A stretch of 64,000 nt of DNA from a virus (IMGVR_UViG_3300012983_000039:1-64000), one strand, 5' to 3'. Numbered from the stretch's first letter, positions 7,063-64,000 are shown. Made by a program: numbers and translations. Notes: generated from the letters alone by a model not told the origin.

Positions 7063-9050
7063 ATTCAAAGAAAATTGTTGACGCTTATTTAAAGCAAACA
7101 ACTTGGAAAGTTAAGGAAAATTCTAATTCGCCATATTCATATGGTGGTTTGGGCAAGCATATAGACACAGAAGTGTCGAAAGATTATTGGCTTAATACTG
7201 TTTATCCAGAACATATAAAAAAAGAATATGAGAAAGGAACTCTACATATTCATGACTTGGGTGGTTTAACTCTTTATTGTTGCGGATATAGTTTAAAATC
7301 TATTATTCAGATGGGAGTTAGAGGTATTCCTAATATACCAACTTCTGGACCAGCAAAACATTTTGACTCAATTTTAAATCAGATTTCAAATTTAATTACT
7401 GTGTTTCAAAATGAAATTATGGGTAAGTGAAAACCGTGCCCTCTCAAATTTTACCATTAATCAATGGGGTCATTTATTTGGCTAACGAGGAAGGCTAAGT
7501 CTAATGATATGCTAATCTCGTGGCAAGTTTAAGTTAATCTTAAAAAGCTGTATCGACTATTCACGTTAAGTGAAGTAAAATAACTATTGATACGTTATTT
7601 GAAATGGTTTGGCTTTAAGCTAAGAAATAGTCAGTGCCATTGGAAACAATGGATTGCCACGGCGGTGGCGTTTAGTTCTGTTGATACTTTACTTTCTCCT
7701 TTTATTAAAAGAGATAACCTAACTTATGATGAAGTAAAACAATCTCTTCAAAACTTTATTTTCTCTATAAATTCAAATTCAAGAGGCGGCGCAGAGCCAG
7801 CATTTTCAAATATTACACTTGATTTAACTCCTCCAAGAGACCTTTTAAATGAAAATGTTATGATAGGCGGCGCATTAGATAACTTTACTTATAAAGATTG
7901 CCAAAAAGAAATAGATATGTTCAATAAAGCCTTCTGTGAACTAATGATTAAGGGCGATGACGAAGGTAAACCTTTTGCCTATCCTATCCCGACTTACAAT
8001 ATCCACGAACGTTTTGATTGGGATAATCCTAACAATGAACTTCTCTGGGAAATGGCGGGAAAATATGGATATCCTTATTTTGCTAACTTTATTAATAGCG
8101 ACATGAAACCTGAAGATGCTCGTTCAATGTGTTGTAGACTTCGACTTTCTTTAAAAGAGCTTAGCCGAAGAAATGGAGGTCTGTTTGGTTCTGGTGATTC
8201 AACTGGCTCAATAGGTGTCGTTACGATTAATTTACCTCATATTGCTTATACAACAAAAGGAAATAAAGGTGAATTCTTTAAAGAGCTTAATCGAGTTCTT
8301 GAAATTGCTAAAGAAAGTCTTGAAATAAAGCGTGAATTTTTACAAAAAAACGTTATAGAAACTAATCTTGTGCCGGCATTCAATACATATGTTGGAACAT
8401 TAAGAAATCATTTCTCTACAATTGGTATAGTTTCTATGAATGAAATGTGCGAAAATTTCTTTGGAGAAGGTATAGACATTCTCACAGAAGAAGGTAAAGC
8501 TTTTAGTATAGAAGTTTCAAACTTTATAAGAGAAAAACTTTTAAAGTTCCAAGAAGAAACAGGCAACTTATATAATTACGAAGCGACACCCGCAGAGTCA
8601 ACTTGTTATCGTTTAGCATTAAAAGATAAGAAAAATTATCCAGATATAATTACAAGAGGAACAGATGACGCACCTTATTATACTAACAGTTGTCATATCC
8701 CAGTTAATAAAATTAAAACAATTCATGAAACATTTGAACATCAGGAAGATTTACAGATTTTATTTACTGGCGGCACAGTAATTCACATCTATATGAATGG
8801 CGCTATATCTGGTGAGGCAGCCAAGGATATAGTAAAAACCGTATGTAATAAGTATAAAGTTCCTTATGTAAGTATAAGTCCTTTAAATAGATACTGTCCA
8901 GAACATGGCTACGTGCCTGAAAGGGTTGATAATTGTCCTAAGTGTCAGGCTAAGCTTAAAAAATACCAGCGAATTACCGGATATTTAAGATGTGAGGATA
9001 ATTTTAATGATGGAAAGAAGGCAGAATTTCGTGAAAGAAAACAGCTTTAA
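7059..9050 (+). CDS. nrdD: anaerobic (class III) ribonucleotide reductase, spliced join(7059..7424,7662..9050), about 584 aa
   Basis: HIHDL, YCCG, splice restores NEIMG|AVAF, SMCCRL finger loop, EATPAE, YYTNS, RITGYL glycyl-radical motif; no ATP-cone. Confidence 0.93.
7425..7661 (+). mobile_element. group I intron in nrdD (237 nt, no ORF)
   Basis: P1 GGGU/GCCC with U.G; P10 ACCGU/GCGGU; P7 GACUA/UAGUC; P9 CCAUUG-GAAA-CAAUGG; P9.0 GUG/CAC; terminal G. Confidence 0.93.
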
Positions 9051-9498: not shown

Positions 9499-9499
9499 A

Positions 9500-9715
9500 A
9501 TGAAGAAGAAAATAACCGATGATTTAGATTTAAAGGCTAAAATTTCTTTTGGTTTAAAAGAAAACTATCATAAATACGGTGCGCCGCACTGTCCTTGTGT
9601 TAATCCAAAATTTTATAACGAAGATACAATATGTCCTTGTAAAGCTTTTCGAGAGGAAACTCCAGTAGGAGAAAAATGTTATTGTGGACTTTATGAAAAA
9701 ATAAGTCAAGATTAG
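9500..9715 (+). CDS. ferredoxin:thioredoxin (disulfide) reductase catalytic-subunit-like protein
   Basis: CPC..CPC..CYCGLY signature; AAGGAG RBS supports ATG at 9500. Confidence 0.8.
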   Translation: MKKKITDDLDLKAKISFGLKENYHKYGAPHCPCVNPKFYNEDTICPCKAFREETPVGEKCYCGLYEKISQD

Positions 9716-9747
9716 TTCTTGACTTCTTTTTATTTTTATGCTATAAT
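9703..9747 (+). promoter_or_regulatory. fused terminator hairpin / promoter
   Basis: AAGTCAAGA..TCTTGACTT plus T-run; TTGACT(9719)-17-TATAAT(9742) with TG. Confidence 0.75.
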
Positions 9748-10185: not shown

Positions 10186-12486
10186 TTATTCTGCTGAAGA
10201 TATAGTGTCTTTAAGTGCCGGACGTGCTTTTAGAGAAAAGATAGGAATGTATTTATCAGCAGATAGACAAGAAGCAATAAACTTAGGATTAAGAGAATTA
10301 ATAGTTAATGTTCAAGATGAGTTTGAAGTGTATAAACCACAAAATCCTCTTTTAAAAATTACTTTAAATTCTGAAACAAAAGAAATATCTGTTGAAGATA
10401 ATATGAGAGGTATTCCTGTAGGGGTTAGAGCTGATGGAATGAACTCTTTAACTGCCGCCTTTATGATACCACATAGTGGTGGTAAGCATCAGGAAGGAGC
10501 ATATGTAAGTTCAGTCGGAATTAACGGTTAACCTGAGCCGTTGTAAAAAAGTTTGAATTGCTGGAAACCTCTTAGAGCCAAATAAACTACAACATAGAAA
10601 GCGTTTTTATGTGAATGTTTAAAAATTATTTGGATTGGACAATCAGCAGCGAAGTATCTAATAAGTGCCTCTTTGGAGGGTAATATGATTTGGAAATTAA
10701 CTTGTGGCGTAGAAGTATTGATTGATGAAGATGATTATAATAAAATTGATAAAACTGGTTGGTACTTATTAGATGAACGTTCAACGACTATTGAAAACGA
10801 ATTAATTAATAATACAAATAGTGATATAGAACAACTATTAGGTATTAATTTAAAAGAATTAATCGTGAGTAAAGTAGGCTCAAGCGAGTCGAAGTGGACT
10901 TAGAAAAGATATAGTCTGAACTTATATGGAAACATATAGCAGCACTTAAAAGTGCGGGATTAAATTAGCGATTTAATCCGAACATTTTGGAAGGGAATAA
11001 AGTAGTTAACCATACAGCAAAATGGTTAGAAGTATATGTTAAAAGAGATGGTAATATTTATTACCAAAAATTTACTTCTACTTCCGAGGGAGCTACTCCT
11101 GAGTGTGAAGTTTTAATTAAAGGAAAAACAAAAGAAACTGGAACTTTAATTACTTATGTGCCAGACCCTGAAGTATATGGTGATATATTTATCCACTATG
11201 AAAATTTAAGAAATATGTTAAGAGAGATGTCTTATTTTACAAAAGGATTAAAAATCTCACTTATAATTGACGGAGAAGAAGAAACATTTTACTCAAAAAA
11301 TGGATTAATAGATGGATTAAAAAGTGATTTTAGCTTATCTAAACCATTTTCTTATTTTTATGAAACTTCTGATTGTAAGGTTGAACTTGCTTTACAGTGG
11401 GTTTCTAAAAAAGGACAAATCAAAGGCTATGCTAATGGTCTTTATATGAGAGATGGCGGCGCCTTTATAAGTGGTTTTAAAACATCTTTAACAAGAACAT
11501 TTAATTCATTAGCCAATTCTAGTTTTTCTGGTGAACAAATCCGAAATACTCTTGATGGTTTTGTTTCAGTTAAAGTAAAAGTTGGACAGTTCTCAAACCA
11601 AGCAAAAACAGCTTTGGCAAATCCAGAAGCTAGAACCGCCACATCTACCGCAATAACACAGTGTTTAAAGGAATTTTATCAAACTCATAAAAATGAATTT
11701 ATTCAAGTTTCAGAACTTCTTAAAAAGCTAGAAAGAGCAGAGAGGGCGGCAGATAGAGCAAGAGAGGCTGTTCTCAATCATACTAAAGAAGTAAATAAGG
11801 AACTTAAAAAGAAAACTGTTTTAGCTGGAAAATTAGCAGATTGTAGATATCATGATGAAAAATCACAGCTTTTAATCGTGGAAGGATTATCTGCCTTGGG
11901 TGGAATAGTAAAATCAAGAAATAGCGACTATACTGCGGCCATACCCCTGACGGGTAAGATACAAAATGTTTTCAAAAATTCAGAAGATAAGCTCTTAGAA
12001 AATCAAGTTTTAAAGGATTTGCATACAGCTATAGGCTCTGGATTTGGAGATAGTTTCAACATAAAAAAATTAAGATATGGTAGAATAGTTTTTGTTTGCG
12101 ATGCCGATGAAGATGGATATTCTATTATGTGTTTATTGCTTGCTTTTATGTATAAATACTATCCAGAATTAATTCGTTTAGGTAAGGTTTATTGGGGACA
12201 GACTCCTTTGTTTAAAGTTGTAGCAAAAAAAGAAGTTTATTATGCTTATTCTGAATCAGAATTAAAGGAACTTCCAAAAGGCGACATTACTAGAGCAAAG
12301 GGAATAGGCGAGTTAGAGCCAGAAGACTTTAAAGCAACTCTATTTTCTGAAAAAGGACGTTATACACCTTTTACATTAGAAGATGGTGAGAAAGCAGCGG
12401 AATATTTTGATATTTTATTGGGTGAAAATATAACGGCGAGAAAGAAATATATAAGTGAAAATGCTGATTTTGATGCGTTTGACTAA
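10172..12486 (+). CDS. gyrB: type IIA topoisomerase subunit B, spliced join(10172..10528,10990..12486), about 617 aa
   Basis: ELIVN..DE, EDNMRGIP, HSGGK, splice restores VGING|EGNKVVN, TOPRIM VEGLSA and DADEDG, KGIGE. Confidence 0.92.
10529..10989 (+). mobile_element. group I intron in gyrB (461 nt) with a homing endonuclease remnant (about 10686-10780)
   Basis: P1 AACGGU/GCCGUU; P motif GAAUUGCUGGAAA, Q motif AAUCAGCAG, R motif UUCAACGACUA, S motif AAGAUAUAGUCU; terminal G; GGAGG RBS plus MIWKLTCGVEVLIDEDDY fragment. Confidence 0.92.
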
Positions 12487-17041: not shown

Positions 17042-19283
17042 ATGGCTATTGATTTAATGACACTTGAACCGCAGAAGATTTCGAGAGATTTAAAAGGAAA
17101 ATTTAGTTTATTTTATGGGTCGCCTAAATCCTTACACTGGGCAACTATGTAAATAGTTAAAATGGAGTAAAAATCGGGGAAGCTGAAACGCCAATCCGAG
17201 CGGAAGTTAAAATATAATAGTTTTAACACGCACAACGCATAGGAAAAATAACTTTAATAGGAGGTTTGTCCAAGAATGGAGGAACTAATTAATGATTATT
17301 GTAAAAATTTTTTAACTTTGAAAGAATTATCATCAAAATATCATATAGGACAAGATAAAGCAAGAAAAATTTTAAAAGAAAATAATATTTATATAAGAAG
17401 TTCTTTTGAAACTACTTTATTGAAGAGAAATCCAAACTTATCTCTTGAAGAAATAGAAAATAAAGTAATTGATAACTATGTAAATAAAAAATATGGACAA
17501 TTAAAGTCGGGAAGAGAATTTGGATTATCAGCAACTGCTGTAAAAAATATTTTATTGAAGAATAACATTCAAGTTCGAGATTTACATGAGTCTATACGTT
17601 TAGCTAACCAATCTAATGATAGAACCAGACAATATTACTTTAAAAATCCCGATTTCTTTAAAACTGAAAATTCCAATATGGCTTGGATATTAGGTTTTTT
17701 GGCGGCAGATGGTAATGTATCTAAAAACGGAAATAAAATTAGAATTGAATTATCTTATGTAGATAAAGAAATTTTAGAGCGCATAAAAGAGATTATGAAA
17801 ATAGACAATCCTATAAAAGAAAGAGAAGATAAAAGAGGATTTTGTTTTGTTTCATTAGAGTGGTCTTGTAAAGAACATAAAGAAGATTTAAAAAAATATT
17901 CAATTGTTCCTTGTAAAACTTATATTTTAGAGCCGCCTCTAAAATTAAATCCCAAATATTATATTGATTATATTCGTGGTTATTTTGATGGAGATGGAAC
18001 GGTTAATATTAATACTTACCAAAATAAAAAATCAATTCGTTGGAGTATTTGCGGCGCATCTGAAACAATGTTAAGATGGATAATATCTGTGTTATCAGAA
18101 CAATATAATATTCCTAAAGTAAATCTTCATAAAGATAAATCAAAAGAACAAAATTTTTATTCTTTTGTTTATAGCACTAATTCTTCAAAGAAAATTTATG
18201 ATATTTTGTATACAGAAAATTCGCTCTTCTTAAAAAGAAAAAAAGAAAAATTCGACAAAATCATTCAAGAGTTCTGTTAAAGAATAAAATCCCAAGAGAC
18301 TCCAGCACTGAATAGTGTGAAAGGTATGCTGAGCTTATTAGAAAAACAATAATAAGAAGTAAGAAATAAAAAATTCTTACGATAACAAAATGGGTGTAGG
18401 TAAGACATCTCTTGCCGCAAAGTTTGATAAATCTCTTATATTAGGATTTGAGTCAGGCACGAATGCTCTGAACAATGTATATGTTCTTCCAATCAAGACT
18501 TGGAAGGATTTTAGACAAGCTGTTTCTCAGTTAACAAGAAACGAAAAATTAAAAGAAAAATACCATAGTATCGCTTTTGATACTTGCGATGAAGCTTACA
18601 AACTTTGTGAAAGATGGTGTTGTGCCGAAGCGGGTGTAGAAACAGTAAAAGAAATCGCCGCCTATGGTGGTGGCTATAAAATCGTTGAAGATGCTTTTTC
18701 TCAGCCTCTTCGTGATTTGGCTTATGCCGGCTATGGTTTGATTTTTATTTCTCATGAAACTGAAAAACCATATGTAGATGACAATGGTGAGGAATATAAT
18801 AAAATTGTTCCCGCTCTTGCTAACCGACCATTTAATGTTATAAATAAAATGGTTGATATAATAGGCTACGTAAGAGAAATTCCTATTAAGGAAGGGGAAG
18901 AAGTTCATCGAGAACGTTTTATTTTTCTTAGAGGAGATGAAAGATTTCTTACTAAATCAAGATTTAAACATATTAAACCAAGAGTTAAACTTGATTACAA
19001 TGAATTTGTTGATGCCATTTATGAAGCAATTGACAAAGAAATTCAAGAGAGTGGCGGCGAAGCCACGGAAGAGGCAAATCCTTATCTTGAACAGTCTTTT
19101 GATGATTTAATGGAAGAAGCTAAAGAATTGTGGATTAAAGTTTCAAACTTGGATAAAACAGATGAAGCTCTTAAAATTCTTGAAGAAGAGTTTGGTAAAC
19201 CAACTCGTTTTTCAGAAATTACGGCTGAAGGTTTAAATGAATTAAAGAAATCAATCCTGAGAATAAGAGAAATTACAGCGTAA
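17042..19283 (+). CDS. Sak4-like AAA ATPase/recombinase, spliced join(17042..17125,18393..19283), about 324 aa
   Basis: Exon 1 MAIDLMTLEPQKISRDLKGKFSLFYGSP (not in the ORF track; AAGGAGG RBS); splice restores Walker A GSP|GVGKT; IAFDT, FISH. Confidence 0.85.
17126..18392 (+). mobile_element. group I intron in the Sak4-like gene
   Basis: P1 GCCU/GGGC; P10 CCUUACAC/GGUGUAGG; terminal G; carries a LAGLIDADG ORF. Confidence 0.88.
17276..18280 (+). CDS. intron-encoded LAGLIDADG homing endonuclease with N-terminal HTH repeats
   Basis: WILGFLAADG and YIRGYFDGDG. Confidence 0.9.
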   Translation: MEELINDYCKNFLTLKELSSKYHIGQDKARKILKENNIYIRSSFETTLLKRNPNLSLEEIENKVIDNYVNKKYGQLKSGREFGLSATAVKNILLKNNIQVRDLHESIRLANQSNDRTRQYYFKNPDFFKTENSNMAWILGFLAADGNVSKNGNKIRIELSYVDKEILERIKEIMKIDNPIKEREDKRGFCFVSLEWSCKEHKEDLKKYSIVPCKTYILEPPLKLNPKYYIDYIRGYFDGDGTVNINTYQNKKSIRWSICGASETMLRWIISVLSEQYNIPKVNLHKDKSKEQNFYSFVYSTNSSKKIYDILYTENSLFLKRKKEKFDKIIQEFC

Positions 19284-22322: not shown

Positions 22323-23078
22323 ATGGACGCTATGGAAATAAGTTTTATGCCTAAGAAAAAGAAAGCGGTTTCAGAAATAACGCCAGATATAATTAGAGAT
22401 ATAAACCGAATTTATCGAGAAACTCTTAATAAAACTGAAACTGCTCGCCGCCTCAACATAACAACATATTTAGTATCTAAATACTTAACCGATGAAAATA
22501 AAAGCTTAAAACAGTCTAAAGCAAAAATTACAGATGAAGTTAAACAGCAAATTAATGAAATTTATCAGCAAACAAGAAACAAAACAGAAGTAAGCCGACA
22601 GTTGGGAATAAGTTTTTCAACTGTTGAAAATTATTTAACAGATGAATCAAGAGCATTGGTAGAATCAGAGTGGGACGACAGAGATGCTCTATGGTATTAC
22701 ATTTATCGTTTATTTGGACAAGTTTCGGAAACTAATCCAGTAAGCACTTGGAATATAACTCAAATGAATAAATTCAAAGCTCAAGGAATGAGTTATAGAG
22801 GACAGCTTTTAACTTTAAAATATTTTTATGAAGTTAAAAAAGGTTCTATAGAAAGAAGCAAAGGAAGTATTGGTATTATTCCTTATATTTGGGACGAATC
22901 GAAAGCCTATTATTTAAAACTTGGAGAAAAACAGCAAGAAGTCGCTGACGCAATAAAAGCTCAACTTGAAAAAGATAGAGTAGAAATAAAATATACTCCT
23001 TCAAGTTATATGAAAAAAAGAAAAAAGAAAAAGCAGGAAATTGATATTTCAAAAATAAAGGAAGAGGAAGATAAATGA
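22323..23078 (+). CDS. tandem-HTH DNA-binding protein preceding the helicase
   Basis: Two ~48-aa repeats IT....IN.IY..T.NKTE..R.L.I....V..YLTDE. Confidence 0.6.
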   Translation: MDAMEISFMPKKKKAVSEITPDIIRDINRIYRETLNKTETARRLNITTYLVSKYLTDENKSLKQSKAKITDEVKQQINEIYQQTRNKTEVSRQLGISFSTVENYLTDESRALVESEWDDRDALWYYIYRLFGQVSETNPVSTWNITQMNKFKAQGMSYRGQLLTLKYFYEVKKGSIERSKGSIGIIPYIWDESKAYYLKLGEKQQEVADAIKAQLEKDRVEIKYTPSSYMKKRKKKKQEIDISKIKEEEDK

Positions 23079-26000
23079 TAGAAGTAGATAGACCCACAAT
23101 TATCCAAATTTTCGGGGCTTTAATGAAAGCCCCTAATCTACTTTCTGATATTGACAAATATCAGTTAGATATGGAGTCTTTTAATAGACCATTAGACCGT
23201 TTTATTTTTTCAGCTATTTACAATCTTTATGTCAATGGAGCTGAAAGAATAACAACAGTAGATATTGTAAATTATTTAACTCCTAATACTTATGCTTCAA
23301 ATCTTATTGAAAAAGAAAACGGAATTGTTTTTCTTCAAGACTGTGAAACTTTAGTAGAAAAATCAAACTTTGATTATTACTATAATAAATTTAAAAAAAT
23401 TAACTTAGTAAGAGAACTACAGCTTGCTAAAAATGATGTTGATAAAATTTATTCAGACGATCCATTGCGAGATGATAGTCAAGTAATCAATGCGAACTTT
23501 GAAAAAATGAGTTCGCAGGATATTTTAAATTTATTTAAAGGTAAATTAGAAGTCTTGGAGAAACGCTACGTTATTAATAATGTAGTAGAAGAAAGTAGTC
23601 CCGCTGCCTCAATAAGACAAAAGCTTAAAGATTGGAAGAAAGAACCAGAAGTTGGTTGTAGGCTTCAGGGAGATATTTTTAATACAATAACGAGAGGCGG
23701 CAGAAGAGGAAAACTTTATTTAAGGTCTGCGGGAAGCGGCGTGGGCAAGTGCGTCCCCAATTATACTAAAGTTCCAACTCCAAAAGGTTGGACAACAGTT
23801 GGAGAAGTTAAAGTGGGGGATTATCTATTTGATAGATTAGGTAATCCAACTAAGGTTTTAGCAATATATCCTCAAAAAGAAAAGAAACAAATTTATAAGG
23901 TTTACTTTAAAAGTGGACGAGTTGCTGAATGCTGTAATGAACATTTATGGAGCTATTATAGTAATAAAAACGATAAAAATCCAAATAAATTAATTACTTC
24001 AACTTTACAGGAAATAATTGATAACCCGAAAGGACTTAAGGATAATAAAGGAGCTTATCGTTGGAGTATTCCAATTTGTGAGCCAGTTCAATATAAAGAA
24101 AAAGAATATTCCGTTGATCCATATGTAATGGGATTAATTTTAGGAGATGGAAGTTTTAGATATCAAGATAATAATAAGAGTTTTTCTTTTAGTTCAAGTG
24201 ATGAGGAATTGGTTAATTATATTAAAGAAAAAATGAATTATGATTTGTATAAAAAATATAAAGGAAATAATTACTCTTGGTATTTTGAATCAAATTTTAA
24301 AACTCATAAAAATGTTTGGGTAGAAGATATTTTAAAAGACTATCCTGAACTTTGGAATAAAAAAAGTGAAGATAAATTTATTCCGCAAGAATTTTTATTT
24401 GGCTCTATAGAACAGCGTTTTAATTTACTTGCTGGGCTTCTTGATACAGATGGAACAATAGACAAAAAAGGGAGAGTTAATTTTACTACGATTAGTCCAA
24501 AATTAAGAGATAATATTATTGAACTTTGCGAATCTTTAGGTATGACTTGTTCATGTGTGGTTGATAAAAGAAGTGAAAAATATACAACCAATGAATGCTA
24601 TAACATTAATATTAAAACAACCCAAGAAAACAAAGTAAAAATGTTTAAACTTACAAGAAAATTAAATATTGCTCATAATTATTTAAACAATAATAAGAAA
24701 AAAGAGCGTAAAGATAGAGACTCTATCATAAAAATCGAACCCACTAATAATTATGTTGATATGACTTGTTTTTATGTAGATAATGAAGAACATTTGTTCT
24801 TAATGAACAATTTTATTTGCTCTCACAACACTAGGTCAATGGTTGGTGATGCCTGCAATCTAGCTTATCCAGAACGATATAATCCTCAAACTGGAGAGTG
24901 GATACAAAACCCATCTACTGAAAAAGTTTTGTATATAATGACAGAGCAAGACACAGAAGAAATTGATACAATGATAATGGCTTATTTGACGGGTTATAAC
25001 GAAGAAGTTTTTACTTACGGAACTTTTGATGAAGATGACCCAATTATTCAAAGAGCAATAGAAATAATGGAACAAAATTCAGACAATATGAATTATGCTA
25101 GAATACCAGACCCTAGTAGTTCAGTTGTTAAAAATTTGATTAGGCGTAGATTTTTACAAGATGAAATTGAATATTATTTTTATGATTATATCTTTTCTTC
25201 ACCGGCTATGCTTAATGAGTATAGAGACTTAGGTATAAGAGAGGATGTTGCTCTTAGATTATTCACCACAGCTTTAAAAAATATTGCTGTTGAGCTTAAT
25301 ATATTTTTATTAACAGCAACTCAGATATCTAACGATGATGAAAATAAAAATGGTGGTTTTCGAGATTTTCGTAATATTAGAGGTCAATTTTGGGCCTTAA
25401 TATACTTTTTCCTATTTTATTAATAGGGGTTGATTTTTAATCAGCTAACGGGGAAGCCTAATTTATTATAAACGGCAATCCCGTGGGAATTAAATCCTGT
25501 ATCGACTATCCCTTAAGTTGAAATGCTGGGGAGTAGGGACACTATTAATACGTGTCTTGGTTTTAGGAAACGAAGCCAGTGAGAACCGAAATGGGTATAG
25601 TGTTTAATTTTAAACATTAAAAGATAGTCAGTGCCTTATGGAAACATAAGGAATTCATGTCAAGAGCAATAGTTGATCTAGTTGACTTTGCCGCAATAAT
25701 GTCTCGACCATCGGTTGAGGAACTTAATACTATAGCAAAATATTCAAAAGAATTTTTTGTTCAACCAAACTTAATTACAGATATTTTTAAAAATCGTAGA
25801 GGACGTTGGAATATGGTAAGAGTTTGGTCTTATTGGGACGCCGGCACGTGTAGAAAGCAAGATTTATTTATTACAGACTCTAGGTTAGAACCTTTAAAAG
25901 ATTTTACAGTTTTTAATTTTATAACAGATAAAGAAGATGAACAACGAAATGAAGCTGAAATTAATGTAGTGCCGGCACAGCATCAAAAAATTGATGTTAA

Positions 26001-27185: not shown

Positions 27186-29696
27186 AGTATATTCAGAAAA
27201 CGTCAAAAAAGATTACTTCTAATTTTTTAGAAGAACTTTTAATTGACAGAGGTATTTTGAGAAACGAGGTGGAGTTTAAGGTTAACTTTTTTAAGCCATC
27301 AAAAGAAAATTTAGAGGATTTTCGACATCTTGATAATATAGAAGAAGGAGCGGATTTACTCGAAAAGCATATTTTTAATGGAAGTAAAATTTATTTAGTA
27401 GTGGATTGAATGCTTGGGTTCACTTTAAATTCCTTAAATTGCGGGGACACCCTTAGAGCCTTAATAACCAAACATTAACAGCGATGTTAATGCGGCGGCT
27501 AGTAACGGAGTCGGTATGGTAAAATCATTAAGGATTGGGCAATCAAGCGCATCGAAATTTCTCTCTGAGAAAGACGTTCAACGACTATAATAGGAACATC
27601 AAAAAAACGATGAAGGTATAGTCTACTCCCTATCTGAAATTTTATAAAATCTATCCATTAATTTTACCTCTACTTATGAAATGGTTTGTTGGTTAAAAGA
27701 CATATTCGGTTTTGGTTCTATAGTAAAAGAAAAACGCCGAGAAAAAATATATTATTTTAATTTTGGTGGTAATAAACAAATTGAACTTTTTTATCATTTA
27801 TTATATGATAACGCGACAGTCTGGATGGATAGAAAATATAATAAATTTCAAGATTTTTTTAAATACGTCGAAAGACGGGGTATAAAAGCCAGATATGGAC
27901 GGCTTCACAAGTAGTGCCATTCTATACAACTATTTAAGGCAAAACTATATCGACTATAATTTTGAACTTTCATATCATATTCCAGAAGGAAAAGAACACG
28001 GTTTGGAAGTTCTAATGCCACTTCTTCAAAAAGAAAAAATATGTGATTTAATTATATGTCCAGACTCATCTTCTAATGATGAAGAGTTCCATAAAATTCT
28101 GAGTGAAATGGGCTATGAAATTTTGGTTATTGATCACCATTTAGCTTCGGGATATAGTCCTTATGCTACAGTAATCAACAACCAACTTTCAGAAAAATAT
28201 CAGAATAAAGAATTATCTGGTGTAGGAGTTGTATATAAATTACTCCAATTACTTGATGAAAGAAACGATACACGAGACGCAGATAATTATTTAGATTTGG
28301 TTGCCGCTGGCATATGCGCGGATATGTGTCCTCTTTTAACTTTGGAAAATCGCTTTATTTCAGAGTATGGTTTTTCTCATTTATATAATAGTGGATTAAG
28401 AGAATTAATTAAATATCAAGCTTATTCAATTTTAGGTGTGGCGGCAAGTGAGATAACAGATTGGAGTGAAGTTAAGGTTAATCCAATTGATATTTCTTTT
28501 TATATAGCTCCTTTGGTAAATGCTTTAATAAGAGTAGGCACTACAAAAGATAAAGAAACTTTGTTTGAAGCTTTTATTAATGGAAGGAAATTGGTTGACT
28601 CAACAAAAAGAGGACATAAAGGAGAATTGGAATCTATTGCCGAACAAAACGCAAGAAATTGTGCTAATGCTAGAGCCAGACAAAATAAGGAAAAAGAAAA
28701 AGCTACAGAATTACTCGATATCCAGATTTTTAATGATAATTTAGATGAAAATAAAATTCTTATATTAAATGCTGACGAGCTGGAAACTCCTAATACTTTA
28801 ACTGGACTATGTGCCATGAATGTTGCGGCGAAATATAAAAAGCCAATTTTGTTAGGAAGGACTACACCAGATGGACAGTATCTTAAAGGTTCTATGAGAG
28901 GACAGAATGGTTCGGAACTAAAAGATTTTAGAAAATTTTTGTTAGATAGCGGATATATGGACTACGTTGAGGGTTAACACCATGGCCCGAAAATACTTTT
29001 ACCATTAATCAATGGGGTCGAAAAAAATTCGGCTAACGAGGAAAGCTAAGTCTAAAGGATATGCTAATCTCGTGGGAAAATTAAACCTGTAAAGACTATT
29101 CTCTTTGAGAAGTACAACTACTATTGATACGTAGTTGGAAACGGGTATTCTATCAGTTAGATAGTAAGAAATAGTCTGTACCATTGGAAACAATGGACTA
29201 TACACATGCTAATGCTTCGGGTTTTAGTCTAAAAATTTCAGACATACCTAAGCTCTATGATTATGCTAATAAACAACTCGCTAATATTAATTTTAACGAA
29301 GGTTTTTACGAAGTTGATTTTATAGTTAATAACAATTGTCCATATTTAAAAGATTTAATTTTTGAACTAGATAAAGGTAAGTCAATTTATGGACAAGATT
29401 GTGATGAGCCACTTATTGTAGTAGAAAATATATCTGTTGCGCCGGCTAACATATCTTTTATAGGAACTAATAAAGATACTCTTAAAATTTCAAGTGGAGA
29501 TATGACCTTTATTAAATTTAAGGCAAAAGAATTAATAGAACAACTTCAAGATTTGTTAAAAAGTTTAAAATCAACTGATAAAATTAGCTTTACAATAATA
29601 GGAAAAGGAAATATTAATACTTGGTGCGGCAGAAAGACAGCTCAAATTTTTATAGAGAGTTTAAAATTTGAAAAGGTTAATAAATATACATTTTAA
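27182..29696 (+). CDS. recJ: RecJ-like DHH exonuclease, spliced join(27182..27406,27889..28974,29205..29696), about 600 aa
   Basis: Splices restore VVD|PDMDGFTS and VEG|HANASG; EHG, IDHH, LSGVGV, GSMRG. Confidence 0.88.
27407..27888 (+). mobile_element. group I intron 1 in recJ with a degenerate LAGLIDADG C-terminal remnant (27681..27914 frame)
   Basis: P1 GUGGAU/GUUCAC; AAAUUGCGGGGA, UUCAACGACUA, AAGGUAUAGUCU; terminal G; remnant ..LYDNATVWMDRKY. Confidence 0.88.
28975..29204 (+). mobile_element. group I intron 2 in recJ (230 nt), terminal nucleotide A
   Basis: P1 GGGU/GCCC; P10 CAUG/CAUG; core close to the nrdD intron; P9.0 GUA/UAC then A. Confidence 0.87.
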
Positions 29697-36800: not shown

Positions 36801-38745
36801 AAAAGGAAAAAGCTCTATGAGTAGAATTGTTATTAAAAATAAAACATTCACAGATCATCTATCTAAATATGGTATTATTAAAAATAAAACTAAAAATACG
36901 AAACATCTTCCATATGAAATAATCCCAAAAGAATTATGGAGACATTTTTTAAGAGGACTGATCGATGGAGATGGATGGATTACAAAAACAAAGGAAAATA
37001 GATATCATATTGGATATATCACTCAATATAATTCTACAGCATTGGATTTTATCTATATGATGAATGAACTCATAGAAGATAAATGGAAAAACAGAGTAAT
37101 AAACAAAGATAAAAAATATTCTGTTGTTCAAATACAAAAATCTGAGCAAGTAAAACAGTTGGCAACTGTTTTATATATGAATAGCAATATTCATCTTAGT
37201 CGTAAATTTCAATTAGCTCAAGAAATTTTAGACTCAAAAAGTTGATAAAGATATAGTCTGGACTTTATGGAAACATAAAGCTCGAAAGAGATCACTATAT
37301 GTGATAACACATTCGTTGCAAAACCTCATGCCTTAGCCTATTCATTTACTGGTATACAAACTCTTTATCTAGCAACAAATTTCCCCGAAATCTATTGGGA
37401 TTGCTCTTGTTTGATTGTAAATTCTGGTGGAGCAGATTTGTTAGATATTGATGATATAGAAGAAGAAGATAATGAAAATGAAGAAGATGAGGCATTAAAG
37501 AAGAAAAAGAAAAAGAATAAAACAGTTAACTATGGAAAAATAAGCACGGCAATTGGTGAAACAAAAGCAAAGAAAATACAAGTATTACCACCCGATATAA
37601 ATAATTCATCTCTTATATTTAAACCAAGTTTAGAAAAAAATGCTATTCTCTATGGACTTAAGGGATTAAATCGTATAGGTTCTCAATTAGTATTACAAAT
37701 TATTTCTAATCGTCCTTATTCTTCAATAGAAGACTTTCTAACTAAGGTGAAAGTAAATAAACCACAAATGATTAATCTAATTAAAGCCGGCACTTTTGAC
37801 GAACTTTATCCAGATAAAACTCGTTATGAAGTAATGGATTTATATATAGATTTAATTGCTGATAAGAAAAAAAGAATTACTCTACAAAATATGATGATGT
37901 TAATTCGATTTGATTTAATTCCACAAGAACTTGATTATGAGCGCCGCCTCTTCAACTTCAATAAGTATTTAAAAGGTTTTAAATCAGAAGATGATTATTT
38001 ATTGGACACAATAGCTATGAACTTCTTTGAAAACAATTACGATACTTCTCTTCTAAAAGAAATTCTAGTAGACGATGAAGGAAAAACCGGTGTTATTTCT
38101 CAAAAAACTTGGGATAATATTTATAAAAAGGGAATGAACCCATTGAGAGATTGGATTAAAGCTAATCATGATGAGATTTTAAATACTCTTAATCAAAAAC
38201 TTTTGAATGAAGCGGCGGAAAAGTATACTGAAGGCAATATAAGTAAATGGGAAATGGATAGTTTAAGTTTCTATTATCACGAACATGAACTTGAAAATTT
38301 AAGAAAAGACTTATATGGAATTTCAGATTACTCTAAACTTCCTAAAGAACCTGAAATTGATAGAAGTTTCTTAACTAAAGATGGAAGCAATATTACTATG
38401 TATAAAATTACACGTATTGCCGGCACAGTAATAGATAAGAATAAAGATAAGGGATTGATTACTTTACTTACTACAGATGGTGTAGTTTCAGTTAAAATTT
38501 GGAAAAACCAATTCGCCGCTTGGGATAAACAAATTTCTGAAAGAGATAGTGAAGGTAAAAAACACGTTATTGAAAAATCTTGGTTTACTAGAGGAACTAA
38601 ACTAATAATAAGTGGAGTTAAACGTGAAGACAGTTTTATTCCTAAAAAATATAAGAGTTCTGAGTATCCATTGTTTGAAAAAATAATAGAAATTGATGAT
38701 AAAGGTTTTATTATCAATTCAACAACAGAAAGAGCAGAAGAGTAA
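30836..38745 (+). CDS. dnaE: DNA polymerase III alpha subunit: join(30836..30898,+1 shift,30900..32138,33326..33904,35202..35469,35849..36223,37316..38745), about 1317 aa
   Basis: PHP HSHSEYS..TDH..GNE..DAHY; GPGRGS; junctions LLG|ITQLDP, KYD|LLVT, NA(L)MR, YA(F)AKPHALAY; PDIDID; HASG; PPDIN. Confidence 0.93.
32139..33325 (+). mobile_element. group I intron 1 in dnaE
   Basis: P1 UGGGU/GCCCA; UAUCGACUA/AAGAUAUAGUCA; terminal G; carries a GIY-YIG ORF. Confidence 0.9.
32328..33194 (+). CDS. intron-encoded GIY-YIG homing endonuclease
   Basis: CYRIVN..KEYIGIT..RRMKQH..E..NGYN. Confidence 0.87.
   Translation: MKDIYMFCYRIVNNINKKEYIGITADFERRMKQHKNQKSNSLIHNAILKYGKENFTYEILASELSIEEAEKMEIDLIKKRNTLAPNGYNLAKGGLHGGSKIKITDEQVAYIKNNRNLPLYVLYDEFSDLISYGYFKEIYKNNVRPDIKPAVEMYPYNLEFSTQFTRTKLTYQNVVDIRKAYANMIDWKEIYPKYKDKVAESTFFDVYRGQSFMLIMPEVFSEENKKKHFSLSRSGSKNGNAKLKADDVKLIRKMHEDKKTNKEINAYFPQVSIDTIRDIINYRTWKNI
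33905..35201 (+). mobile_element. group I intron 2 in dnaE, endonuclease gene inserted in the P1 loop
   Basis: Ribozyme core lies entirely after the ORF (34900-35201); IGS GUCCUA pairs with exon UACGAU; P9.0 GUG/CAC, terminal G. Confidence 0.88.
33946..34895 (+). CDS. intron-encoded LAGLIDADG endonuclease, split by a -1 frameshift near 34062-34068
   Basis: GAGGTG RBS and ATG 33946, stop 34080; -1 frame continues to YLLGFICADG and FLLGYFDGDG. Confidence 0.8.
35470..35848 (+). mobile_element. group I intron 3 in dnaE (379 nt, no intact ORF)
   Basis: P1 GCGU/GCGC; P10 CAUUG/UAAUG; GCUAACGGGGAA..AAUCCCGUG; AGAGACUA/GAUAGUCC; terminal G. Confidence 0.9.
36224..37315 (+). mobile_element. group I intron 4 in dnaE
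   Basis: P1 GCGU/GCGC; GAAUUGCUGGAAA, AAUCAGCAG, UUCAACGACUA, AAGAUAUAGUCU; ORF inside P8 (UAUCAAC..GUUGAUA); terminal G. Confidence 0.9.
36448..37245 (+). CDS. intron-encoded LAGLIDADG homing endonuclease
   Basis: YFLGFIFADG and FLRGLIDGDG. Confidence 0.9.
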   Translation: MKRISIEIEKRICNDYSTGKYSSRELGEKYSLSKSTILRVLKRNNIEAKNRRLVNTNLDINYFKEINTEQKAYFLGFIFADGCVSNEELFIDINEKDIDILAKFREEINSQAKISTRIKGKSSMSRIVIKNKTFTDHLSKYGIIKNKTKNTKHLPYEIIPKELWRHFLRGLIDGDGWITKTKENRYHIGYITQYNSTALDFIYMMNELIEDKWKNRVINKDKKYSVVQIQKSEQVKQLATVLYMNSNIHLSRKFQLAQEILDSKS

Positions 38746-58000: not shown

Positions 58001-61000
58001 TAATTCCCAATAAGAAAGAACTTTCTTGGGCAGTTAAATTTTTATCTTGAATAAATCCTTCTAATGCTTTTCCATATTCTTCTCTTAAAGTTTCCGGCAT
58101 AGCATCAATAGCATTTTTAAAAATTGTTAATTGTTCTGTTGTCCAATTTTCAAAAAACTTTTTGCTATTTTCTTTAGAACGATTATCTTCAAAAGATATT
58201 GGACCATTCATATCTGGATAGAGATATTGATACAATCCATTTTTTCTTGTTCCATTTTCTTGTAAAACACCAAAGAATATAGTATCCCAATTCTTTACTT
58301 GTTCTTCTATATAAGTTTTGGCATTATCTTCGTTTTCTGTTCCGGCAAAAGTTTTGAGGAAAGTTTGTCCTATTTGTCCTTCTAAATCAGCTTTTGTATA
58401 AGTTGGTAATTTTTCCGCAAATTCAGTTATAGTTAAACGTTGGAGAGGATTAAGTGCTTCAATTAATTCTTGTCCTTCTTTTGATTTATAATATGCCTCA
58501 GCCGCAGATTTATAATCCGATTGGAGTTTTTCGATATCCTTTTTAGCTTTTCTCTTCTTTTCGTAAGTTTCAGCTTCGTAGCCGGCATATCCAAGAATTT
58601 CTCGTTGTTCTGTAGTTAAATCTGAATACGCTAAAAGATTATTGCCCCATCCATTTGTACTTATTTTTCCTAAATGTTTACCTTTAATCTCATTGTCTGC
58701 CGCCTCAGATATAACAAAATTAACTATTTCTTCTTGGGCATCTGTAAGACTTGTTAAAGCAGTAGCAAGCGCCGCCTTTTTTAAAGCTTCAAATTCTTTT
58801 GTTTCTATTTCCGTCTGTTTTTCATTTCTCTTAATTTCATCTTCTACGTATCCATTAGCTGCTCGCCAACCCTCGTGTCCGGGGTCATCAATTTTATAAA
58901 GGAGGTCAATCCAACCTTCTTTATTGAGATTTTCGAGATTGTCTACTCCAAAATAGCTGGCAATTTTTTCTACTTCTTCTTTATTAATTTTTTGTAAAGC
59001 AAAACCTAAAGTCCACGCATCATTTTCCAACATCATTCTTATTTCTGGAATAGAAGAGTCAGATGTAAAGTCTAAATTATTTAGTTTTTTAATATCTTTA
59101 TTCCTATTTTCTTTTTCTAATTTAGCTACTTCAATTTCTTTATCATATATTGTAGAAGTAGTAATAAAACTTTCTAAAGCTTTTTCTTTAGCCAACTGTT
59201 TAGAAGATTTAAGAATTTGTTCCCACAAATCAGTTTGAATTTGAAGTTCTCCAGTCATTTCATTATAATAATTAACGATTTCTGGATACTCGTCTTTTAT
59301 TTCTTTAATTAAATCATTATATCTTTCTTGTTCTTCAGAACTTAAAACTTGTTTACTATTTAACTCATTAAATTCTTTCTTAAGTTCTTCTGCCTTTTCT
59401 ATAGCTTCTTTTTCTGTTTTAATTAAATTCTCAAGCTCATTTTTCTTTGAAGTTAGTTCTTCAATTTCTTTATTAAGTTGATTAATTTGACGATTAAGTT
59501 TGCCTATTTGCATCTCCTTAATCGCATTAGATGCGGCTTTGATACCAGCAGCTAAAGCACCGATGGCTAAGCTAATTCCCATAGCTACGCCGCCAGCCTT
59601 TAAGCTTGAGAATAAAGCTGTCAACTTACTAGATGAAGCATCTAATACTGTTTTGAAAGTATTAACAATTTGTGGAACGCTAGAGACCAATCCAGTTATG
59701 ATTGTATCTTTTAATACTTCCCCCGGATTATTTCTCAATACATAAGAAGTAATAGCACTAGTTAACCCCATAGAGAAAGAAGTTCCAACAGCAACACCCA
59801 TGGCTGAATAGTTGGCTTTCTTAACAAGATCTTTTGAAAGGTCTTTTGATTGTAATTTAAGGGCTTCTTCATAACTTTCTGGAGTATAGCCTCTTTTTGC
59901 TAAAAATCTAGCCAAATGATTATTTACATAATCAGAAGATTTGTTTAAAGATTGAAGTTTTTGTGAAAGAGCTGTATATTCAATAGAAACTTTTCTTATA
60001 TCGGCAATAGGTCTTGTGATATCAATTGCCATAGTCATTGGTGTTCCTATTAAATTACGAGCCTCTATTATCTTATTATTTACTGCTTGAATTTGTGCTT
60101 CTATTTCTTGTGTTGATAAATTTAAATTAGTATTAATACCTAAAAATGAACCAAGTTTAGTTTGAGAAACTTTTTTCATTATAATATTGCGTAAAGTTGT
60201 AAAAGCTCCTAATACTGTTGAAGAGGCATCTCTCATTCCTTTTGCGAACTGTGTAATCGCAGTTCTTCCTAAAGTAAACCACATTACCGCAAAGCCAGTA
60301 AAATTAAGTCCACTTAAATCACCGAGTTTATTTACAAGATTATCCAAGAAAACAAGAACATCTTTGTAAACTTCACTATTGAGAAAGCTTGTTCTTAATT
60401 GTTCCCAACTATTTTTTAACTGGTTTAATCTAAATTCAACAGTATCTTGATATTTTACGAATTGTTGTTCTGCCTTTCCTGAAGCTTCGCTCGCAACTTC
60501 AATTAATTCAGTTGTTCTTTCGTAGTTATCCATTAAGGCAAGAAATCTACTTTGCTCGTTTATCCAAATAAGTTTCCCTATTTGACAGACTATATCTTCA
60601 CTAAAAAGTGTCTGGCACTTCGAGAATTTAACTTCTCTACAATTAGTCGTTGAACCTTATACTTAATCTTCAATATTTTTCCAATAAAAGCCGCAACTAC
60701 AATAACCTTTTTTTATTGCCGCTTGAATAGACTGTGGCTTTACTCCCATATGTCTCGCCGCATCAGCATTATTTTCAAATATTTGAATTAGATTTCCTTC
60801 TTTATCATAACAAGCAGTTCTTTTAAATTTAAAAGTTTTAGTTTCATAAATAGCTTTTAAAACATTTTCTTGGTTTGTAATATTTTCTAAATTACTAAGT
60901 CTATTATCAAGTTTATTACCATTAATATGATTAATAATTTTTTGTTCAGTTCCAACCCAAGTTTCCCAAACTAATTTATGTCCTCTCAAACTATGGCTTT

Positions 61001-64000
61001 TGTTATCAAAAGTTAAGTTAAACTCTCGATAACCAGCATCGGTTATTTTCCCTTTTAGCATTTTTTCTGTTTTAGCATTTTTTACTCGTCCTAAATTAGA
61101 AACCATATAAACAGTATTTCTAAAAGTTCTCCATTCTTCCTGAGATAAATCATAATCAAGATAATCTGTATGGTCTTTAAAATTTAATTTTTTGTTAATT
61201 TTTAAATTATTTTCCGATGGACTTACCCATTGTAAATTTTCAATTTTATTATTAAGTCTATTTCCGTCTATATGATGAACATATTCTAAATTTTTAGGAT
61301 TTTCAATAAAAGCTTCAGCAATTAATCTATGTTGACTTCGAGCATATTTTTTATTCTTCCATCTTAAGTCAAACCATCTATATCCATTTCTAATAGTGCC
61401 TTTGTAATATCTTCCGGTTTTTTCATTCATTACTCTACCATCATCATAAATTCTATATGTTGTTTCCTGCTGTTCAATAAAAATTTTTTTATACATATTC
61501 TCACCTCTCTTAAAAAGAGGAAATCTAATATAAGTATCTTGGCTGCGGATTACCCAATCTTTTCTCTTTTTACCATACCGAAGTAATTACTTTCGCCATA
61601 TAATATGTTGCCATTTATATTTGGTAAGAAAAGCTCTAAGGAAGTCCCCGCAATTCACCAGATTTTTGTTTTCTTGTATTATTAGGCTACAAGAGGTAGT
61701 GGGTTAGCATTTAGCCTACTACCTGCCGATTGAGTGGCAATGTATCTTTGAGCGTTTCGGGACAATTTAGACCAGTTCTTATTTAATTCAATAAATACAT
61801 CGTCCAAATCTCGGAATTGTCCATTAGTATCTTTCAATTGAATTCCGACAGATTTTAAAGCTTCGTCTACTCGGTTGTAGTCCATTGCTTCAATTTCTTC
61901 TTCACTTAAATCAGATACATTTTCTTTAAGCTCTGTGAATCTCAAATTTTGTTACGATCATTCGCTACATGACCTCTTAATATTTCTATTAAGTTCAGAC
62001 TATATCTTCATCTTTCGATGTTGGGCACTTCGAAACGCTTGTTTCTACATAATAGTCGTTGAACCTTGAGGATAAAAATTCGGGAATATTTTTTAAATCC
62101 CAATAAGGAATTTCTATTAAGATAATATTATTAGCCTCGCAAAAATCTCTTTTCTTCTTATCTCTTGTAATTTTAGTTGACTTGGGCATTTTATCCTCCT
62201 TGGCTGCTGATTGTCCATTAAATCAAACTTAGGTATATATTTTCCATGTTATATTTACGATATAATTTAGGAAAATGATGTTCTTCCATATTCTATCCCC
62301 TTATTTATTTCTACTTTCGCAACCTTTTCTTTTATTATATCATTTTTTTAGATAAAAGTCAAAGGTATAAGGGGCTTTAGGATGTCCCAGCAATTCACCC
62401 AATTTTGCATCGCCAAATTCACATCTCAGCGATTATACTTTTCATCGCAGTTCCTAGGTTTTCTGGAGCCTCCTGAGTTGTTTCAATCATTTGAGTAAGG
62501 AAAGCTGCGGTATTTTCAAAGGACATACCAGCTGAATAAGCAATTGATGATGTTTTACTCATAGCGTAAGCTATACCTTGAACATCCGCTGCCGCCTTAG
62601 CTGCGAGTTCTGAGTAAACGTCGGTAACTCTCTGTCCTTCGTCCATTTCAAGTTTAAATCCTCTTAAAGCAGAGGTCATTTGTGAAGTTGCTTCTTTAAA
62701 GTCTAGTCCGGCTAAAGTAGCCAATTTCATTGTTTCTTCTGTAAGTTTAAAAGTTTCATCTATTTCCAAGCCCTGTTGAACGTAAAGTCCAGATGCTTGA
62801 ATAACAGAAATTGTGGTTTGTCCAAGACGATTAGCTATCTCAGCATATCGGTCATATCTATTCCACATATCTTTGATTGTTAAATCGGTTACCATCGCTA
62901 CTTGAGCAAAAGCTTTATCAAGTGTCTGTATATCATTAAAAGTTGAAGTAATAACTCTTCTTAACAACCTAAATCCATTAGCCAAAGATAAAGTATATTC
63001 AGCATAACGTTTTAAATAAGAAAAACTATTATCTAAATCTCTTTGCTTGTTAACCAAGTCAGAAGTTTCTCTATTTAATAAAGTTGTGCTTTCTCTTTGT
63101 GTATTAATTAAATTGTCAATACTTCTTAAACTGTTCTGTTCTCTATTTAATAAAGCTAGAATACCTTTGATTTGCTGACTTGTCTGATTTACATTGTTAT
63201 TTTCTCTTTCAACTTTTTGTTGCTGTTGATTTACTAGATTAAAAGCATTTAAAATTTCTGGGGAATTTAAAATCTGTTCTCTACTAATTCTTTTATCTTG
63301 GGCTTTTGTTAAACTACCTTTTGCGGCACTTAAACTTGCTTTAAGACCATCTAAATCTTGTTTAGCTCCACTGATTGCCGCCTTCACTGTTTTAAATTGG
63401 TTTGCCATATTGGCGGTTAAACCTTTTTCATTTTTTATTTCAATATTCATTTTCTTTAAAGCTTCGGTAAAGTTCTTATAAGCTATAGTAGCATCTTTAA
63501 CTTGTTTACCTTGAGCATCAAAGAAACTGTCAGCATAGGCTAATTTAACTTGTTCAAGTTGCTGAGTAGTTATATTTTCTCCAGTGGTGGTATTCCTAAA
63601 ACTTGTAGTTTTATAGTTATTTAAAGGTAAAATTTGTTTACGTCTTTCAGACAACTCTTTCTTAGCCAAATCATAAGATTGTTGTTTTCTTGCTACTTCG
63701 GCATCTAAGCCGGCAAGAATTTTAGATTGAACTTCTTTTAAAGACTTCGCATCTACAATTTGTTTAGCATAGGTTTCTCTTGTTTCCCGAGAAACCTTTT
63801 GTTGTGCTAAAAAATTTTTAATTTGTTCTTTTTGTTCATCCTTGGTTTTCTTTAATAATCGTTCTTGTTCTTTTAAAGCTGTGTTTGCCTTGTCTAAATC
63901 GTTTTCTAAATTCTTCGTGTTTAAATCTTGTAATTTTAAAGAAATTTTAGAAAGGTTAGAAAAGAGTTTATCAACTTCTTTTTCATAGTTAGTAAAATCT
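55053..64000 (-). CDS. tail tape measure protein, spliced join(>64000..62428,61942..61714,60556..55053), 5' end outside the window
   Basis: TP901-type core; junctions SIIA|RFTELK and AGSR(Q)QSRFLALM; long coiled coil; C-terminal GGLVDYTGPAWVDG; frame open to the window edge. Confidence 0.9.
60557..61713 (-). mobile_element. group I intron 2 in tape measure gene (C-A pair at the 5' splice site)
   Basis: GUGAAUUGCGGGGA, AAUCCGCAG, UUCAACGACUA, AAGAUAUAGUCU; P10 UGCU/AGCA; terminal G; carries an HNH ORF. Confidence 0.88.
60663..61496 (-). CDS. intron-encoded HNH homing endonuclease (two NUMOD4/HNH units plus NUMOD1-like tail)
   Basis: HRLIAEAF..VHHIDGNRLNN..NLQW; INHINGNKLDN..NLE. Confidence 0.88.
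   Translation of the reverse strand: MYKKIFIEQQETTYRIYDDGRVMNEKTGRYYKGTIRNGYRWFDLRWKNKKYARSQHRLIAEAFIENPKNLEYVHHIDGNRLNNKIENLQWVSPSENNLKINKKLNFKDHTDYLDYDLSQEEWRTFRNTVYMVSNLGRVKNAKTEKMLKGKITDAGYREFNLTFDNKSHSLRGHKLVWETWVGTEQKIINHINGNKLDNRLSNLENITNQENVLKAIYETKTFKFKRTACYDKEGNLIQIFENNADAARHMGVKPQSIQAAIKKGYCSCGFYWKNIED
61995..62189 (-). pseudogene. internally deleted Vsr/DUF2726-like homing endonuclease remnant
   Basis: AAGGAGG RBS; RDKKKRDFC..NIILIEIPYWD matches the C-terminus of 476..1243. Confidence 0.65.
62334..62362 (-). promoter_or_regulatory. consensus promoter inside the tape measure intron
   Basis: TTGACT-17-TATAAT with TG on the minus strand. Confidence 0.7.

Follow-up and report, generated by a model that had tools for sequence, protein, structure and literature searches.

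Twelve probable group I introns and a DnaB-type intein interrupt replication and tail genes of an uncultured siphovirus-like phage

The first 64 kb of a 91,305-bp contig, held in IMG/VR as a single virus record (IMGVR_UViG_3300012983_000039:1-64000; this stretch of 64,000 nucleotides is called the window), carries nrdD, gyrB, genes for an AAA_24 ATPase and a DnaB-like helicase, recJ, dnaE, which encodes the DNA polymerase III alpha subunit (Pol III alpha), and a tape-measure gene. An initial annotation held that replication and tail genes of the window are interrupted by twelve group I introns and an intein. One intron lies in each of the first four genes, two in recJ, four in dnaE and two in the tape-measure gene, and the intein is in the helicase. 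All 12 pairs of intron coordinates were tested and every one stands at the nucleotide level. The introns amount to 8,549 nt and the intein to 1,080 nt, together 10.5% of the contig.

We found that in-silico removal of the 12 intervals gives open frames with zero stops. The resulting junctions, 12 of 12, align with zero indels to uninterrupted homologs and fall inside highly conserved motifs, so that removal restores the gene in each case. For these comparisons the four dnaE junctions, both recJ junctions and those of AAA_24 and the helicase were each set against 10 relatives, gyrB against 5 and the two tape-measure junctions against 14, while nrdD was compared with gp46 of Clostridium phage phiCTP1 and with 42 of 42 close viral homologs. 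The relatives came from viral metagenomes, from which 80 loci surrounding dnaE, 6 containing gyrB, 19 with a tape-measure gene and 42 with nrdD were retrieved. The motifs that splicing was predicted to rebuild are rebuilt, namely GSP/GVGKT, VVD/PDMDG, EG/HANASG, LG/ITQLDP and YA/FAKPHA (a slash marks the junction). The open reading frames (ORFs) that flank each intron are consecutive pieces of one Pfam family: positions 1-104 and 102-560 of the NrdD profile, the ATPase domain and then the remainder of GyrB, AAA_24, the DHH and OB domains of RecJ, five successive pieces of Pol III alpha, and positions 4-145 and 149-197 of the phage tape-measure domain.

Two exons said to escape standard ORF callers are real: the first exon of the AAA_24 gene, since the spliced protein aligns from residue 1 (Table 1), and 33326-33628, since dnaE residues 432-624 are contiguous in relatives. 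Three junctions interrupt codons and the first AAA_24 exon is a 28-codon piece with no start, and for these reasons separate translation cannot substitute for splicing. The predicted dependence of these genes on splicing is thereby supported, as intact NrdD, GyrB, AAA_24 ATPase, helicase, RecJ, Pol III alpha and tape measure could be made only once the RNA or the protein has been spliced. In 7 of the 12 introns the upstream reading frame meets a stop no more than 9 nt past the splice site, against 19% expected; an early stop of the upstream frame after the 5' splice site is a feature of the T4 introns.

Covariance models support the group I identity of 11 of the 12 introns, through the Rfam model RF00028 or a core model of our own. 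Nine introns gave significant RF00028 matches of 30-45 bits (E 1e-10 to 7e-5), with all single matches lying below the 50-bit gathering score; 36224-37315 and 60557-61713(-) pass 50 bits only as summed halves. Partial RF00028 matches split by endonuclease loops are known from Bastillevirinae introns (PMC11878797). Our own model describes a 157-position td-like core, that of the class A introns defined below, and was built from three introns of the window and three from relatives. It scored three window introns outside the training set at 62-73 bits. In related loci it picked out 60 cores, every one of them on the sense strand, and in the remaining 27 kb of the contig it gave zero additional introns. 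Introns 32139-33325 and 35470-35848 are supported by this model only, and 17126-18392 by neither. A group II identity does not fit: there were zero Rfam group II matches, the ORFs in the introns code for homing endonucleases, and the 5' ends do not resemble GUGYG.

Table 1. Predicted introns, intein and uncalled first exon in the window, with covariance-model (RF00028 or own core model) or protein-family support. HTH, helix-turn-helix.
Coordinates	Strand	Feature	Support
7425..7661	+	nrdD, after codon 122; ORF-less class A intron	RF00028 41.2 bits, E 2e-9, full-length
10529..10989	+	gyrB, after codon 119; class B intron, endonuclease gene not recognised	RF00028 29.8 bits, 3' domain
17042..17125	+	First exon of the AAA_24 ATPase gene, 28 codons, uncalled by ORF caller	Alignment of the spliced protein to 28 relatives begins at residue 1
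17126..18392	+	AAA_24, splits Walker A GSP/GVGKT; divergent group I-like intron with LAGLIDADG gene (17276-18280)	Pfam LAGLIDADG_3
23750..24829	+	P-loop of DnaB-like helicase; 360-aa intein with LAGLIDADG endonuclease domain	Pfam Hom_end, LAGLIDADG_3
25385..25659	+	Helicase gene, after codon 770 (intein counted); ORF-less class A intron	RF00028 38 bits, E 1e-9
27407..27888	+	recJ, after codon 77, splits DxD motif; class B intron	RF00028 40.4 bits, full-length, at 27398-27646
28975..29204	+	recJ, after codon 439, splits GGH; ORF-less class A intron, ends in A	RF00028 38.1 bits
32139..33325	+	dnaE, after codon 431; class A intron with GIY-YIG gene (32328-33194)	Own model 73 bits, E 5e-12, non-training
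33905..35201	+	dnaE, after codon 624; class A intron with 44-aa HTH ORF and LAGLIDADG ORF	RF00028 40.6 bits at 34937-35193
35470..35848	+	dnaE, after codon 713 (phase 1); ORF-less class A intron	Own model 67.8 and 35.2 bits, non-training
36224..37315	+	dnaE, after codon 838 (phase 1); class B intron with LAGLIDADG gene (36448-37245)	RF00028 45.1 + 31.8 bits, two halves (sum 76.9)
60557..61713	-	Tape-measure gene (phase 1); class B intron with HNH/NUMOD gene (60663-61496)	RF00028 33.6 + 21.2 bits, two halves (sum 54.8); Pfam HNH_3, NUMOD4, NUMOD1
61943..62427	-	Tape-measure gene, first of two introns; class B, endonuclease gene not recognised	RF00028 35.6 bits

The introns fall into three sequence groups: class A with six members (td-like, IA2-like), class B with five and a textbook P/Q/R/S core, and the single divergent 17126 type. 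The class A core, including its P4 and P7-P7.1 sequences, we take to be very like that of T4 td. The class B elements are AATTGCKGG, AATCAGCAGC, GTTCAACGACTA and AAGATATAGTCTGAAC, and within the 91 kb the P, Q, R and S motifs are confined to the claimed introns, in the correct order and strand. Class A covariation was measured on 53 distinct cores, in an alignment fitted to our own model: 92.5% of cells were paired, compared with about 40% when partners were slid, 26 of 29 pairs showed double changes, and 0 of 500 shuffles came out as high. Compensatory changes were found in helices P4, P5, P6, P7, P7.1 and P7.2. An unfitted MAFFT/RNAalifold analysis of eight full introns likewise gave compensatory changes in 22 of 44 pairs. 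Conserved cores that covary across 53 copies therefore argue for selection on the RNA. At the splice sites, 11 of the 12 upstream exons end in U and 11 of the 12 introns in G, and in 10 of 12 cases the exon-terminal U faces a G of a P1 guide that lies no more than 30 nt away.

The introns with conventional boundaries can be described briefly. In nrdD, exon GGGU pairs with GCCC at nt 14 of the intron, and the junction VFQNEIMG/AVAFS is identical in phiCTP1 NrdD. The gyrB intron contains AATTGCTGG, AATCAGCAGC, GTTCAACGACTA and AAGATATAGTCTGAAC as its P/Q/R/S elements, has a 7-bp P1, and leaves a junction colinear in L086, L087 and L089-L091. The helicase junction FRNIRG/SRAIV is colinear in 49 relatives. 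The first recJ intron has a 7-bp P1 and a 240-nt 3' tail, and 57 relatives are colinear across its junction. In L022 this site is occupied by a 1.1-kb intron (6034-7131) that also ends in A, at a boundary which the DxD motif fixes, so that a non-G end is seen at a second site. In dnaE, the first intron is only weakly matched by RF00028 (18.7 and 16.9 bits), its ORF is a Pfam GIY-YIG member, and its junction is colinear in relatives. The third has an insertion of about 110 nt after P4-P5 and a colinear junction, with an insert at the same site in L045. About 8 relatives, as well as Enterococcus phage EF1, have an insert at the site of the fourth. The first tape-measure intron has a 6-bp P1 with a U-G pair and a junction, MKSIIA/RFTELK, colinear in 14 relatives.

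The claimed intein is present, and it is canonical. It occupies residues 226-585 of the ORF beginning at 23075, is absent from about 45 relatives, in which the flanks abut exactly, and has the hallmark residues (GSGVGK/CVPN...CSHN/TRSM, with Cys1, a terminal His-Asn and Thr+1), so that its excision rebuilds GSGVGK/T. The N-terminal part gives matches to solved inteins of the DnaB and gp41-1 kinds (E 5e-10 to 6e-6) and the middle part to PI-SceI (E 1.5e-4); the element also matches Pfam Hom_end (1.9e-13). The block B TxxH motif is absent as such, with CNEH in its place, and the host protein gives a weak DnaB_C match. Intein-like in-frame inserts were also seen in the dnaE genes of relatives, at L006:6043-7299, L075/L076:11752-12819 and L082:8540-9589; the L006 insert has C...HN/C, spans 1,257 nt and contains no stop.

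We examined the distribution of these elements among the relatives. Five of the window introns encode endonucleases by Pfam (three LAGLIDADG, one GIY-YIG and one HNH), and seven do not. Most relatives have empty sites where the window has introns and some have occupied ones. In four genes of the 80 relatives there are about 40 further inserts, some at identical sites, some at other sites, and a few of them inteins. From AAA_24 to dnaE the window has 8 introns and the intein, compared with 4 in the richest relatives. The statement that most phages have none thus calls for a qualification, since members of this clade often have introns at these sites or close to them. Two cultured phages extend the picture. 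The gyrB gene of Lactococcus phage LW81 contains an unannotated 312-nt class A intron (L112:2474-2785; own model 112 bits) and is annotated as two "subunit B" coding sequences. In the dnaE gene of EF1 (L209), two unannotated introns split the coding sequence near residues 457 and 838; its later pieces carry the label hypothetical, and the interruption near 838 is the window's fourth dnaE site. Separately, L203, L204 and L208 carry an insert of about 1 kb in nrdD at residue 279/280, a site other than that of the window nrdD intron. L140, which also has the P-loop intron, gives two further RF00028 matches about 100 nt apart (3546-3753 and 3859-4199; 45 and 39 bits), which again points to very densely packed introns in this clade.

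Our interpretation, to which we assign a probability of about 0.88, is that all twelve are self-splicing introns of group I which have built up within conserved parts of essential genes, accompanied by a DnaB-type intein. Each gene would be transcribed through its introns and the RNA would fold. An external guanosine would then attack after the exon-terminal U held in P1, and the freed exon would attack after the last G of the intron, joining the exons into an mRNA for the uninterrupted protein. The intron and intein endonucleases would cut empty alleles in co-infecting relatives, whose repair would copy the element in; the seven introns with no endonuclease gene may have lost one or never had one. 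We infer that the elements splice and home and that the three introns with atypical boundaries are competent.

Several observations weigh against this interpretation. As a single match, no intron reached the RF00028 gathering score. Scanning the whole window yielded zero group I matches, whether the limit was the gathering score or E<=10, and so did scanning a 4-kb part; this seemed to be the very outcome, no covariance-model match, that the initial annotation had named as speaking against its claim. A genome search, a 301-nt scan and scans of other short stretches gave matches and reversed this result; we therefore rejected the null as evidence that introns of group I are absent, and the whole-window result is a filter effect, with RF00028 matches emerging in short stretches. 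Our own model was trained on three window introns, the core alignment (A4) was fitted to that model, and class A P3 was sought and could not be pinned down. The statement that each intron has a P1 and core motifs stands for P1 in ten of the twelve. It does not stand for 33905-35201, where the U is present but there is no clear guide, only an imperfect one about 1 kb downstream. For core motifs it is only partly true of 17126-18392, in whose type P7 was sought and not identified. Neither RF00028 nor our own model matched 17126-18392, and the same was true of a 580-nt version in a relative. Finally, 28975-29204 ends in A rather than G, and the exon upstream of 60557-61713(-) ends in C rather than U.

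The divergent P-loop intron is nevertheless probably a group I intron, as judged from its comparative structure. A pattern search for homologs gave 37 matches, of which 30 were discarded as chance and 7 kept. There are at least 8 copies of this type, all in the same P-loop codon, with a U before the intron, a terminal G and a GGGC guide. Compensatory changes occur in P2, P3, P6, P8 and two P9 helices, and a long-range helix stands in the place of P3, as UGGAGU/ACUCCA in some copies and CGAAGU/ACUUCG in others.

Three introns, 28975-29204, 60557-61713(-) and 33905-35201, may splice unconventionally, poorly or not at all, and they are the likeliest candidates for an alternative in which some introns have decayed and faulty splicing cripples the host gene or alters its product. 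The non-canonical nucleotides are forced by conserved protein motifs: 28975-29204 ends in A because the invariant His of the RecJ GGH motif fixes the 3' boundary, and the exon before 60557-61713(-) ends in C because the conserved AGSR/QQSRF, colinear in 14 relatives, forces the boundary there. In addition, 33905-35201 has no contiguous guide, and RecJ may be dispensable to a phage. Against decay, the exons past each atypical intron are intact and conserved, in the case of RecJ exon 3 both in the window phage and in L006, with 57% identity between them and no stops. Introns at the same recJ site end in G in L015, L022 and L023 and in A in L006, the closest relative; that the terminal A is common to the diverged L006 argues for persistence under selection. 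Pol III alpha and the tape measure are essential, and the atypical cores score like canonical ones. 28975-29204 reaches 160 bits with our own model, of which it is a training member, and 33905-35201 reaches 61.9 bits, with both of its ORFs (Pfam HTH_7 and LAGLIDADG_3) lying between the 5' splice site and the ribozyme core. We consider decay of some introns unlikely, but not so unlikely that it can be passed over. The idea that RecJ exon 3 is translated on its own from an in-frame ATG within the intron was rejected, as L006 has an in-frame stop there and no start. Endonuclease remnants were sought in the ORF-less recJ introns and none was convincing.

It could also be supposed that the genes are truly split, with fragments translated separately and assembled as proteins while the RNA cores are relics. 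Such genes are known: certain T4-like phages have nrdA or gene 43 divided by free-standing endonuclease genes. ORF callers also find starts for several of the fragments here. The splits in the window, by contrast, cut catalytic motifs and three fall inside codons; AAA_24 exon 2 begins in the middle of the P-loop after an exon of 28 codons, dnaE exon 2 has no start in its first 100 codons, and 53 distinct copies of the ribozyme core show both conservation and covariation. We regard split genes as very improbable, and still less credible is an assembly artefact in which the inserts are chimeric joins. This is a metagenomic virus record with an estimated completeness of 56%, but the boundaries are exact to the nucleotide, and homologous inserts occur at identical sites in many independent metagenomes and in the cultured phages LW81 and EF1. 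A different proposal is that the introns are kept because they are useful, either as a conditional switch that times replication and tail assembly or as a weapon or shield between co-infecting phages. The introns are concentrated in replication genes, similar proposals have been made for other phages (PMC11878797), and intron endonucleases can mediate phage competition, according to work cited in PMC3888941. However, most relatives carry these genes in uninterrupted form and the introns are therefore dispensable, and insertion at conserved sites is expected of selfish homing elements. The notion that introns immunise conserved sites against rivals is also partly trivial, because an occupied site is no longer a target of its own homing endonuclease (PMC3943268). 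We find a useful role improbable and favour accumulated selfish mobile elements at conserved sites as the simpler reading, since most relatives do without these introns.

The route by which the ORF-less introns spread may differ from endonuclease homing. The nrdD intron is absent from 42 of 42 close nrdD homologs and is for that reason an ectopic gain, and the targets of several class A introns have no more in common than a GGGU ahead of the splice site. Tentatively, ORF-less td-like introns could have multiplied to sites sharing these 4 nt, such as that in nrdD, by reverse splicing at the RNA level, in an intron-proliferating viral genome with relaxed splice-site rules; we think this rather doubtful. 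A FastTree placement of the nrdD intron as sister to a recJ intron of the same genome was dropped when a bootstrapped maximum-likelihood tree gave 40-65% support and a different placement. The two introns are 76% identical, which is no higher than same-site introns of different phages, and we name no donor.

The genome itself is best explained as that of a large, siphovirus-like, uncultured phage of low-GC Gram-positive bacteria. The contig is 30% G+C, and a Sipho_tail protein together with a tape measure of about 2,400 aa points to a long non-contractile tail. Pol III alpha is at most 41% identical to any cultured phage homolog, the nearest being those of the large Enterococcus siphophages EF1, EF5 and VRE9, with those of Mammaliicoccus and Bacillus SPbeta-like phages next. 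When cultured phages were searched for near-identical copies of the dnaE region, no match was obtained, and the uncultured relatives lie on contigs of 100-190 kb. Other features were observed alongside. A RAGATH-18 RNA (RF03064) lies at 3050-3110 (+), between ORFs 2459-3007 and 3250-3480, with 54.4 bits against a gathering score of 44.9, and is the sole Rfam family over threshold in the window. Alignments of Pol III alpha from relatives begin at residue 18-19 of the ORF called from the TTG at 30846 (30846-30910). Some relatives have in-frame stops at conserved positions in otherwise intact genes: L010, L012 and L017 in dnaE, L012, L017, L020 and L023 in recJ, AAA_24 and helicase genes, and L098 and L099 in the tape-measure gene. 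In dnaE of L010, L012 and L017 the stops are TAG codons at positions that hold Q, N or E in other phages, a pattern suggestive of stop-codon recoding among some members of the clade; the window, for its part, is open under table 11.

If our interpretation is correct, about a tenth of this genome is self-splicing parasite, and many elements of the kind lie unannotated in a whole uncultured clade and in the cultured phages of Enterococcus and Lactococcus related to it. Standard gene callers and Rfam default thresholds miss these introns, and the proteins are consequently mis-annotated as fragments. The clade would offer dozens of empty and occupied site pairs for the study of homing and intron turnover. 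The three introns that break the splice-site rules and the type unseen by Rfam are candidates for probing how strict those rules are in group I splicing. EF1-like Enterococcus phages are culturable and share one dnaE site, so the splicing predictions are directly testable.

The initial annotation called the intron density extreme, and comparison with the literature consulted agrees that it is exceptional, the number per genome being far above that of any phage named there. More than 100 introns are counted over all phages by a 2025 survey, and in the literature consulted they lie mostly in genes of nucleotide and DNA metabolism, with the three-intron gene of Twort as a striking case; the survey, of Bastillevirinae, found 45 intervening sequences in 37 genes of 52 genomes (PMC11878797). 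The T4 introns in td, nrdB and nrdD (sunY), of the IA2 type, resemble those of the window in occupying nucleotide-metabolism genes, in T4 those of a virulent phage, and in that some carry GIY-YIG or HNH genes in peripheral loops, and nrdD is a host in both. T4 has three introns in 169 kb, compared with twelve in this 91-kb contig, whose host genes add dnaE, gyrB, recJ, the helicase and the tape measure. Twort (reportedly three introns in the tail-tube gene orf142 and two in nrdE) and the Bastillevirinae are alike in having multiple introns per Firmicutes phage genome with a virion structural gene included; the four introns of the window dnaE exceed the three reported for a single Twort gene. 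Unlike Twort and the Bastillevirinae, the window phage uses Pol III alpha, about 41% identical to its nearest cultured relatives. EF1, EF5, VRE9 and the Lactococcus 949 group (LW81, AM1 and others) have the same kinds of intron, and EF1 shares the dnaE-838 site, but phages of the EF1 and LW81 type have fewer introns per gene, unannotated and in other lineages. The intein resembles DnaB-type inteins (6rix, 6bs8; gp41-1, 6riz) in its insertion in a helicase P-loop, Cys1, His-Asn end, Thr+1 and N-terminal splicing-domain similarity; the solved DnaB-type and gp41-1 inteins are mini-inteins, whereas that of the window, with 360 aa, has a LAGLIDADG endonuclease domain in full. Elements of this kind are known; what is new is how many there are, a polymerase gene with four introns, the pair of introns in the tape-measure gene, and those members that are atypical or went unrecognised.

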